From: an uncultured Gammaproteobacteria bacterium
Lineage (GTDB): Bacteria; Patescibacteriota; Microgenomatia; CAZETR01; Amesbacteraceae
Assembly: GCA_964502885.1 (NCBI GenBank)
Contig: CAZCXU010000005.1
Span: 1-60,467, forward strand
Length of the DNA: 60,467 bases
Reading direction: 5' to 3'
Shown: positions 42,006 to 44,629 of the stretch, in pieces
Position numbering within the stretch: the first letter of the stretch is position 1
Layout of the letters: each line of letters begins with the position of its first letter
Made by a program: the position numbers and the translations under genes
The notes under the pieces: generated by a model
What the model was told of the DNA's origin: nothing
What the model saw: only the letters and a program-made list of their open reading frames with translations
The model's database searches: none

Positions 42006-42157
42006 ACTAACATGTTTTATGGATTATTGAAATATTATTTAATTTTTTGTAGCTAAATTGCATGTATTTTGTCTATTTACAGCTGTTTTATTTCTTGACA
42101 ACGAATGTACAAATAATTCAGACTCAGTATTATCTATATAGATGCAGTTTGATTTCT

Positions 42158-43219
42158 ATGCTGAAAGATGAAATGTTTTCCTATCCGATTAGCATTGCAA
42201 TACTTTATTATTCGAGTGATGCAAAGGACACTAAAGACACTGAAATATTTGTAAAAAGTCTTTCCGACACTTTGAAGAAACTCGGTCACATGGTTCGAGT
42301 TGTGCAAGTTACTCACAGAAATTGGCTAAAAACAGTGGGTACTCCGGGAGATGTGGTGTTTAATCTGGTGGAAGACGAAAAATATGAATTGTATGTAAAA
42401 GTTGCGAATAAGTTGTCTATGATGGGAAGGACTCAAGTTGGAATGGGCCCGGAAGGAATGAAGTATATAGTTCGCAAGGCACAGATTAAAAGGAAAATGC
42501 ATTCTGAAAATATTTCCACTCCAAAATTCAGAATTCTAAATAAACGAAGTAATCCAGAGACTATCAAGTCGATGAAATTTCCACTAATAGTAAAACCGTC
42601 CGGTCAACATGCTGGTGTGGGTATAAATCAGGACTCGGTAGTCATTGATAAAAATGAACTGCGAGAACGAGTAAATTTTTTGAGAAAAAATTACCCAGGT
42701 GAGGTGTTGGTGGAAGAGTACATCGACGGACGCGAAATTCAGGTGACTGTGATGGGAAACGGCAGGAAGATTTTGATGCTGCCCCCGGCCGAAGTAGTGT
42801 TTTCAGGAGAATTTCAGGATAACTGGAATGTTTATACTTATGAAGCAAAATGGGAAAAGACTTCATGGGAATATTGGGATGCTAGAATAGCTTGTCCCGC
42901 CAGGATGAGTATAAAACTGGAAAAGCGAATCGAAAGTCTGGTGACCAAAGCGTATCGTGCATTTGAGTGCCGGGATATCGCTAGGTTTGATCTGCGGGTA
43001 GATGAGAAGGACAGAGTTTTTATTATTGATGTGAATATGAGCCCGGGGCTCAATGGTTTGGATGATGAAGAGGCGGCGGTGAGGTCAGCAAAAGCGATGG
43101 GTTGGACGTATCCGCAGCTTTTGGAGAGATTGGTTGCCATTGCTTATAAACGAAGTTATGGTTCTCTCCCCGATCGGATACGCGAGAGGCAGTTTTTACT
43201 TAATGCCCCCGAAATATAG
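42158..43219 (+). CDS. ATP-grasp ligase 1, diverged D-Ala-D-Ala-ligase-like
   Basis: FPLIVKPSGQHAGVGINQDSVV, VLVEEYIDGREIQVTVMGNG, ARFDLRVDEKDRVFIIDVNMSPGL. The ATG at 42158 (MLKDEMF...) is preferred to 42062. Confidence 0.8.
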   Translation: MLKDEMFSYPISIAILYYSSDAKDTKDTEIFVKSLSDTLKKLGHMVRVVQVTHRNWLKTVGTPGDVVFNLVEDEKYELYVKVANKLSMMGRTQVGMGPEGMKYIVRKAQIKRKMHSENISTPKFRILNKRSNPETIKSMKFPLIVKPSGQHAGVGINQDSVVIDKNELRERVNFLRKNYPGEVLVEEYIDGREIQVTVMGNGRKILMLPPAEVVFSGEFQDNWNVYTYEAKWEKTSWEYWDARIACPARMSIKLEKRIESLVTKAYRAFECRDIARFDLRVDEKDRVFIIDVNMSPGLNGLDDEEAAVRSAKAMGWTYPQLLERLVAIAYKRSYGSLPDRIRERQFLLNAPEI

Positions 43220-43223
43220 ATTT

Positions 43224-43607
43224 ATGATAATGCAAGATGGAACGACGACAGATGATTTTGGGCAGGAACTGGTTTTGAATCTGTATGAGTGTGATTTACA
43301 GAAGATCTCTGATGGAGATCATATAAAGGAGTTTGTAGTAAAACTTTGTGATGAGGTGATTTTTATGAAAAGGTACGGTGAAGCACTGGTGCCACACTTT
43401 GGGCATGAGAGTCCAATAACCTCAGGATATTCTCTGGTGCAGCTGATCGAAACCAGTTCAATTACGGGGCACTTTTCTGAATACAAGCGGTCGGTGTATT
43501 TGAATATCTTTTCCTGTAAGTGGTTTGATACTAAAAAGGCTAGGGCATTTTGTAAAAGATGGTTTGGCGCAAAGAAAGTGACAGCCAAGTTTATCCAGAG
43601 AATATAA
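43224..43607 (+). CDS. S-adenosylmethionine decarboxylase (SpeH/AdoMet_dc)-family protein with an atypical cleavage motif
   Basis: GQELVLNLYECD...SGYSLVQLIETSSITGHFSEYKRSVYLNIFSCK aligns by eye with SpeH G.h...dlygC...GvsgvvlisESHltiHtfPE...idvftCg. ATG 43224 lies 4 nt after the ATP-grasp 1 stop. Confidence 0.7.
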   Translation: MIMQDGTTTDDFGQELVLNLYECDLQKISDGDHIKEFVVKLCDEVIFMKRYGEALVPHFGHESPITSGYSLVQLIETSSITGHFSEYKRSVYLNIFSCKWFDTKKARAFCKRWFGAKKVTAKFIQRI

Positions 43608-44629
43608 AGATAGTGTTGAATAAGATTCTGGTCATCTATAACGCAGCTGACCGAAGTGATCCAACCGAGGAAGAAACTAAGATTGGAGCGGAAAAGATAT
43701 TCAATTATTTGAGGGGGGGAGGTTGCGATGTAAGTATTCGGAAAGTCTTTAAGAACAGAATTTCTGAATTTGTGCGGGAGGTAGATAGGAATACTCTAGT
43801 GTTTAATTATTGTGAGTGGACAGGAAAGAAATGTAAATATGAAATTGAATTGCTGGAAAGAATGGCGAAACGCGGAATTAGTTTTACCGGCTGTAATGCC
43901 AGACAACATGAAATTCTTTTGGATAAGACTTTGATGGTAGAAAAGTTTAGAAGTTTTGGTGTACCCATGCTTGGTTCGGTAATGATGAATGCGAATGATG
44001 ATGCGGCAAAATTGGCGCATATAAAATATCCGGCGATTGTAAAGACTACACTGGAGCATTGTAGTATAGGACTGACAAAAAACTGTGTGGTGTACGATGG
44101 GGTCAGCGCTGTGCGACAGGTCAGAAGACTATATAAAAAGTTTCGACAGCCGATAATGGTGGAAGAATTTGCGAATGGTAATGAATATCAAGTATTCGTA
44201 TTTCGGACCAGAAGAGGAGTGAGGACACTGCCAGTCTACGAGACGCAATATAGGAAGCTGCACGAGCCGGTGCTGATTACTTATGCCGAAAATTGGCTGG
44301 GAAAGTCGATAAGCAAAAAAGTGAAGAGAATAGGTGTGACAATGAACCAGATGATGGATAGGAAAATTCGTCGGATGGGGGTGGAATTGTTTAAAAAGTT
44401 GGGCAGTATCGGATATATCAGGATGGACTTGCGGGTACGGGATAGCAGGCTGTATGTACTGGAAGCAAATCCAAACCCGTCTATTGCCTGGACCGAGGAT
44501 CTGGACTTTATTAAGGTTTGTGCCGAAGCTGCCGGTAAAGATTTTGGACAAATAATTGAGTGGATAATTTCAGGATCAGCTTCGAGAGCTCAAGTAGTGT
44601 TTGGTGGTCGGGATACGATAGCGGGGTAA
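43559..44629 (+). CDS. ATP-grasp ligase 2, diverged D-Ala-D-Ala-ligase-like
   Basis: YPAIVKTTLEHCSIGLTKNCVV, IMVEEFANGNEYQVFVF, IRMDLRVRDSRLYVLEANPNPS. An alternative GTG start at 43613 lies 5 nt after the decarboxylase-like stop. Confidence 0.8.
   Translation: MVWRKESDSQVYPENIKIVLNKILVIYNAADRSDPTEEETKIGAEKIFNYLRGGGCDVSIRKVFKNRISEFVREVDRNTLVFNYCEWTGKKCKYEIELLERMAKRGISFTGCNARQHEILLDKTLMVEKFRSFGVPMLGSVMMNANDDAAKLAHIKYPAIVKTTLEHCSIGLTKNCVVYDGVSAVRQVRRLYKKFRQPIMVEEFANGNEYQVFVFRTRRGVRTLPVYETQYRKLHEPVLITYAENWLGKSISKKVKRIGVTMNQMMDRKIRRMGVELFKKLGSIGYIRMDLRVRDSRLYVLEANPNPSIAWTEDLDFIKVCAEAAGKDFGQIIEWIISGSASRAQVVFGGRDTIAG

Follow-up and report, generated by a model that had tools for sequence, protein, structure and literature searches.

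A probable SpeDC-type pyruvoyl-dependent ornithine decarboxylase with a Thr-Ser processing site in an Amesbacteraceae genome

Introduction

The stretch of DNA analysed here, hereafter the window, comprises 60,467 nucleotides from a bacterium of the Amesbacteraceae. On its forward strand, at 43224-43607, it carries a short gene whose product resembles S-adenosylmethionine decarboxylase (AdoMetDC), lies between two ATP-grasp ligase genes and seems to lack the Glu-Ser pair at which enzymes of this family process themselves. A first-pass annotation, which aligned the protein with AdoMetDC by eye, placed Glu76 opposite the canonical Glu and found Thr where the cleavage serine was expected, followed by two Ser. 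Three possibilities were then proposed: cleavage shifted to one of the following serines, a Thr-derived prosthetic group, or a non-processing, non-catalytic paralogue such as a substrate-binding subunit for the flanking ligases. The locus therefore raises the question of where this protein would cut itself, if at all, and which reaction it would catalyse.

Results

The open reading frame runs from ATG 43224 to the TAA at 43605-43607 and encodes a predicted proenzyme of 127 aa. Both the frame and the peptide quoted for it, LVQLIETSSITGHFSEYKRSVYLNIFSCK (residues 71-99 of the translation), are exactly as first described. With 134 aa, the database copy of the protein (P0001) exceeds the product of the ORF from 43224 by 7 residues, as would be expected if translation began at the upstream ATG 43203 (window 43203-43223), a start that overlaps the end of the first ATP-grasp gene. 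The MI..DG N-termini shared by relatives favour ATG 43224 over ATG 43203 as the putative start.

The assignment to the AdoMetDC family was confirmed. The Pfam AdoMet_dc family (PF02675) matches the protein at 58.5 bits (cut-off 25), and an AlphaFold2 model computed from an alignment of 25 relatives reached a mean pLDDT of 90.4. Foldseek retrieved T. maritima AdoMetDC (1vr7/1tlu/1tmi) as the best match of this model, with a TM-score of 0.78 and an rmsd of 1.9 Å, and Aquifex 2iii was also among the best structural matches. Given the Pfam score and the structural matches, we consider the AdoMet_dc fold assignment sound. A single-sequence search of solved structures returned nothing relevant, whereas the family profile did reach the T. 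maritima chains. In the model, a strand (residues 68-75) leads through a turn (76-77) into a second strand (78-85), which is opened by Ser78.

The candidate that the family name itself suggests, a bona fide AdoMetDC, was rejected. The protein scores 25.4 bits against the TIGR03330 equivalog model, whose cut-off is 75.65, and its site reads T-S-S and HFSE, not E-S-H and HTWPE.

We then asked which residue occupies the position of the cleavage serine. Aligned by HMMER to the T. maritima chains, the family profile pairs S78 with S63, H83 with H68 and C98 with C83, leaving T77 opposite E62 and E76 opposite S61. The same pairing was obtained with hhalign (probability 98.1%, E 9.7e-14) when the family was compared with canonical SpeD domains, namely the N-terminal domains of natural SpeD-SpeDC fusions and the SpeD of the genome itself. 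It was unchanged, at a probability of 95.8%, after two stray rows, the SpeDC-like P0249 and the odd P0243, had been left out. In all three profile alignments it is thus T77, and not Glu76, that sits opposite the canonical Glu: the by-eye register was one residue out. Ser78 lies directly opposite the canonical Ser, which refutes the register first claimed.

The spacing of the downstream residues gives the same answer. In T. maritima the His and the Cys follow the processing serine at +5 and +20, and the window protein matches this spacing only when counted from Ser78, with H83 (codon 43470-43472) and C98 (43515-43517) as the counterparts of H68 and C83; that both residues have counterparts had been recognised from the start. 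Natural SpeD-SpeDC fusions carry an AES-H site and an IETS site in one chain, with identical Ser/His+5/Cys+20 spacing.

The motif is strongly conserved. E76 (43449-43451), T77 (43452-43454), S78 (43455-43457), H83, F84, Y92 and C98 are invariant in the 25 aligned relatives, and ETS was present in 65/65 loci where an HFSE-anchored scan found the decarboxylase gene; H83 and C98 do not vary among these 65 loci either. The Thr after Glu, followed by two Ser, had been read correctly and is not a chance feature. Residue 79 (Ser79, codon 43458-43460), on the other hand, varies among S, C, A, N and L in the relatives, and Ser79 therefore cannot be the cleavage serine. Taken as the positional homologue of the canonical cleavage serine, Ser78 would define a predicted scissile bond Thr77|Ser78, encoded by the two codons at 43452-43457; neither residue varies within the close family. 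Self-cleavage at this bond is a prediction that homology supports well. Of the first proposal, cleavage at one of the following serines thus stands, with Ser78 as that serine; a shifted register does not, Ser78 being the canonical position, from which His and Cys follow at +5 and +20.

On the basis of the profile alignments, and of S78 facing S63, the predicted beta chain would consist of residues 1-77 and end in Thr77 (43224-43454), and the predicted alpha chain of residues 78-127 (43455-43604), with Ser78 converted into its N-terminal pyruvoyl group. The calculated masses are 8,753 Da for beta and ~5,964 Da for alpha; cleavage at E76|T77 would give 8,652 and ~6,082 Da, and cleavage at S78|S79 8,840 and ~5,894 Da.

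A Thr in front of the processing serine already has a precedent. Li, Liang, Phillips and Michael (2023, J Biol Chem 299:105005; PMC10407285) described SpeDC proteins as a clade of class 1b AdoMetDC homologues in which AdoMetDC activity has given way to decarboxylation of L-ornithine, with the equivalents of T. maritima S63, H68 and C83 kept. More than 1,000 homologues were reported, including some from the candidate phyla radiation. The validated ornithine decarboxylases (ODCs) also include enzymes of that radiation, and one enzyme each from Kaiserbacteria and Peribacteria was among those assayed with L-ornithine (PMC10407285); phage examples of SpeDC have been described as well (PNAS 2023, PMC9992855). 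SpeDC is recognised by four diagnostic residues (Gln, Thr, Phe, Tyr) and bona fide AdoMetDC by the Pro of HTWPE (PMC10407285). The Thr before Ser is this published diagnostic Thr, so that the site is not unusual for the clade, contrary to what had been supposed for every reading of it.

The window protein carries the SpeDC pattern Q..ETS....HF.......Y..FSC. Gln73 (43440-43442), Thr77, Phe84 and Tyr92, which fall within 43440-43499, are all present and invariant in the family alignment, the Phe and Tyr positions having been mapped by inference from Fig. S5 of PMC10407285. Ser85 takes the place of the Pro of canonical HTWPE. In the same figure, the ODC domains of two validated fusions read LVQLIETSLVSGHF...AYIDIFSC and MTQLIETSLISGHF...VYLDVFSC. 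For one such SpeD2 domain, that of D. phosphitoxidans, the S229A exchange left ODC activity undetectable, and the wild type was fully processed (PMC10407285); by our count along the numbered Fig. S5 alignment, S229 would be the Ser of IETS.

The similarity extends beyond the motif. Across its C-terminal 79 residues, the window protein shares 42% identity (E 5e-22) with the validated SpeD2 domain of Omnitrophica, here represented by the 79-residue fragment in Fig. S5 of PMC10407285 and not by a full-length validated SpeDC. A profile search of 1.8 billion representatives returned 1,634 relatives with E values of 0.001 or below. Among the best 150 of these, 143 show the Ser/His+5/Cys+20 spacing and 123 sites read ETS, with ESS, TTS, HTS and QTS as minor variants. 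At least 11 relatives are natural fusions with a canonical SpeD domain, and several relatives carry an entire spermidine synthase domain, which scores 129-221 bits with Pfam where it is complete. Among the SpeDC-spermidine synthase fusions, P0273 shows 54% identity to the window protein, and an 18-residue stretch, YSLVQLIETSSITGHFSE, is identical in the two. In a phage collection we found distant matches alone (25-28% identity), and a motif search for the two published fusion proteins yielded no exact copies.

In a quick maximum-likelihood tree (IQ-TREE), which took in no full-length validated SpeDC, a branch with 100% support parts the canonical SpeD domains from the ETS clade. The family of the window protein (support 99) is nested in the ETS clade, where it groups with SpeD and SpeE fusions (support 89).

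Other domain combinations were also seen among the relatives. P0192 (303 aa) and P0166 (284 aa) join an N-terminal SET domain of the lysine methyltransferase type to a C-terminal ETS-type SpeDC domain, and in P0274 the SpeDC domain is fused to a CxxCxxCC zinc/iron-chelating domain. One decarboxylase match within the same taxonomic family (G128:C5:17533-17895) contains an in-frame TAA and may be a pseudogene or an assembly error.

Compared with described systems, the window protein is closest to SpeDC, with which it shares the core signature, the Ser/His+5/Cys+20 spacing, a size of ~120-130 aa, the clade of the SpeD-SpeDC and SpeE-SpeDC fusions and an occurrence in the candidate phyla radiation. 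It differs in two respects. After the His, its Microgenomates subfamily reads HFSEYK, whereas the assayed SpeDC domains compared, those of the two validated fusions, read HFAN; and published SpeDC genes cluster with speE, hss or casdh/casdc, whereas the window gene does not. With the class 1b AdoMetDC of T. maritima, TM0655 (1tlu, 1vr7), it has in common the fold, the Ser/His/Cys positions and the predicted serinolysis. The identity is only ~22%, however; Thr replaces Glu before the Ser, Ser replaces His after it, and the marker Pro of HTWPE is lost in HFSE. SpeDA (Sulfolobus, Marinimicrobia and pelagiphage HTVC201P) is likewise a class 1b AdoMetDC homologue that has taken on a new function and uses pyruvoyl chemistry, but it stays close to bona fide AdoMetDC and lacks the Gln/Thr/Phe/Tyr set (PMC10407285) that the window protein has.

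Published SpeDC enzymes have kcat/Km values between about 1e2 and 4e3 per M per s. The wider clade is not uniform in its substrate: one arginine decarboxylase and one true AdoMetDC have been published as exceptions. The homologue of phage phiN3 was reported to be a true AdoMetDC and groups with ODC-like phage proteins; its site reads QDSH, without the Thr.

Both neighbours of the gene are divergent Ddl-like ATP-grasp proteins encoded on the same strand, and a canonical ddl gene lies elsewhere in the genome (contig 13). A fourth Ddl-like gene was seen on contig 3. Ligase 1 (42062-43219; Pfam Dala_Dala_lig_C, 115 bits) ends 4 nt before the decarboxylase gene. Its relatives align from residue 37 onward, and translation probably begins at Met33 or Met38, near 42158 or 42173. 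Ligase 2 (43559-44629; Dala_Dala_lig_C, 51.7 bits) could start at ATG 43559, overlapping the decarboxylase gene, or at GTG 43613 or TTG 43616, directly past its stop.

Adjacency of decarboxylase and ATP-grasp genes is limited to the Amesbacteria lineage; it was seen in ~9/69 loci and also in 8 genomes of the taxonomic family. Within this family the tandem ATP-grasp pair occurs in 24/27 genomes and the decarboxylase in 13/27; genomes that are 97-100% complete carry the pair without the decarboxylase, and in 3 genomes the two are on different contigs. From these distributions we conclude that the ligases do not need the decarboxylase, which speaks against its being a subunit of them. There is only a modest chance that this lineage uses the amine product of the decarboxylase in the ligase reaction.

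The order of these genes also varies. In eight related loci (L001-L006, L018 and L019) both ATP-grasp genes lie upstream of the decarboxylase gene, whereas in the window the second one lies downstream, so that the lineage shows a local rearrangement. The closest counterpart of ligase 2 stands upstream of ligase 1 in relatives. One match to ligase 1 (G049:C1:149708-150814) has four in-frame stops and may be a pseudogene or an assembly error.

Across the 69 related loci, the downstream gene is a GDSL-like hydrolase in 45. In Gottesmanbacteria-type relatives this is a 298-aa GDSL-like lipase/acylhydrolase on the same strand, at a median distance of ~50 bp (for example L044:630-1526, forward strand), and a PsbP-like protein of 171 aa follows further downstream on the same strand in 41 loci. 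To our knowledge, neither the GDSL-like lipase/acylhydrolase nor the PsbP-like neighbour has a link to polyamines.

The window belongs to a 1.0-Mb genome of the Microgenomates type, rated 100% complete. A second AdoMet_dc gene, of canonical type, lies on contig 12 and encodes 118 aa, including AQSHLAIHTWPE (L070:1483-1839, reverse strand). Its processing site reads Gln-Ser and not Glu-Ser. It overlaps by 26 nt an aminopropyltransferase-like gene, BpsA_C (branched-chain polyamine synthase-like; 308 aa, 154 bits; L070:1814-2740, reverse strand), and on the numbering of contig 12 the two lie at about 28.3-29.6 kb. From their sequences and overlap, the two genes are likely to form a pair that supplies decarboxylated AdoMet (dcSAM) and transfers its aminopropyl group.

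We found no gene for arginase, arginine deiminase or ornithine carbamoyltransferase in this 100% complete genome, and no deoxyhypusine-synthase-like gene. With no ornithine route found in the genome, ornithine would have to be imported. In a sample of 151 genomes of the class, 11 carry the decarboxylase, only 2 of these 11 have a second AdoMet_dc gene, and of the 11 only the window genome has BpsA. As so few carriers have either gene, a downstream polyamine pathway is usually not evident, and for most carriers the pathway may end at putrescine. Weak PF01564-like matches were found in 98/151 genomes of the class, with and without the decarboxylase alike, so that co-occurrence with spermidine synthase carries no information.

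Discussion

The apparent anomaly at the processing site is explained by an alignment that was off by one residue, together with a signature that was published in 2023. Considering the register, the invariant residues and the clade placement, the window gene probably encodes a SpeDC-type pyruvoyl-dependent L-ornithine decarboxylase, a class 1b AdoMetDC homologue that would self-cleave at Thr77|Ser78, with L-ornithine as the likely substrate. The protein is in this sense an ordinary, uncharacterised representative of an already described branch.

In the mechanism that we propose, the 14.7-kDa proenzyme would cut itself between Thr77 and Ser78. The hydroxyl of Ser78 would attack the carbonyl of Thr77 to form an ester intermediate, and beta-elimination followed by hydrolysis would release the beta chain (1-77) and an alpha chain (78-127) starting with a pyruvoyl group. 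His83 and Cys98 would take the roles in processing and catalysis that PMC10407285 gives for T. maritima H68 and C83. The alpha-amino group of L-ornithine would then condense with the pyruvoyl carbonyl to a Schiff base, and loss of CO2 would be followed by release of putrescine. This putrescine could feed the separate SpeD and BpsA-like aminopropyltransferase pair on contig 12.

A rival reading concerns the substrate. The same fold and the same Thr77|Ser78 processing could serve L-arginine, lysine, 2,4-diaminobutyrate or an amino-acid or peptide intermediate in place of ornithine, and in the Amesbacteria lineage such an activity could be tied to the adjacent Ddl-like ligases and a C39-like peptidase. 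We consider this rather unlikely. The genes are tightly packed, with 4 nt to ligase 1 and with ligase 2 either overlapping or starting 5 nt past the stop, and ligase adjacency recurs in ~9/69 loci and 8 genomes of the taxonomic family; but a GDSL-like hydrolase adjoins the gene instead in 45/69 loci, and the ATP-grasp pair is found in 24/27 genomes, including near-complete ones without the decarboxylase. The lack of ornithine-producing genes in our search of the genome, the other substrates used by enzymes of the wider clade and the HFSEYK of the subfamily in place of the HFAN of the two validated fusion domains would all be in keeping with another substrate. Against this, the four mapped ODC-diagnostic residues are present and invariant, and a fusion with an identical site segment bears a spermidine synthase domain. 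A more specific version, in which a SpeDC-type decarboxylase was recruited in the Amesbacteria lineage beside the Ddl-like ATP-grasp pair and a stand-alone C39-like peptidase, its amine product being ligated to a carboxylate, appears distinctly unlikely to us. If true, placing putrescine or another diamine on an amino acid or peptide would yield an amide-linked polyamine conjugate or a modification of the cell wall that has not been described before.

The remaining two proposals concern the site itself. A non-processing, non-catalytic paralogue that acts as a binding subunit for the flanking ligases would accord with the tight packing between two ATP-grasp genes, and degraded SpeD2 domains are indeed known in some fusion proteins (PMC10407285 Fig. 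S5). Those published domains, however, are without the Ser/His/Cys residues that are invariant across the present family; about half of the taxonomic-family genomes have the ligase pair without the decarboxylase, and most family members have no ATP-grasp neighbour, which makes such a subunit very improbable. Cleavage at Glu76|Thr77, which would convert Thr77 into a 2-ketobutyryl prosthetic group, draws on the invariance of Thr77 in the close family and on the Glu-anchored by-eye alignment that puts Thr in the serine position. Profile alignments put Ser78 there instead, and the His +5/Cys +20 spacing fits Ser78 alone. Moreover, in the homologous IETS domain S229A by itself abolished ODC activity although the neighbouring Thr was intact, and relatives with ESS at the site exist. 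A Thr-derived cofactor is therefore an idea to which we attach almost no weight.

The reading that we prefer, a SpeDC-type ornithine decarboxylase, bears on the annotation of many proteins. Well over a thousand sequences now labelled 'S-adenosylmethionine decarboxylase' or 'hypothetical', from Microgenomates and other candidate-phyla bacteria, could be better annotated as probable pyruvoyl ornithine decarboxylases. For the organisms themselves, it suggests that bacteria with these very small genomes import ornithine and turn it into putrescine. In the genome of the window, the SpeD/BpsA pair could extend the putrescine formed by this enzyme.
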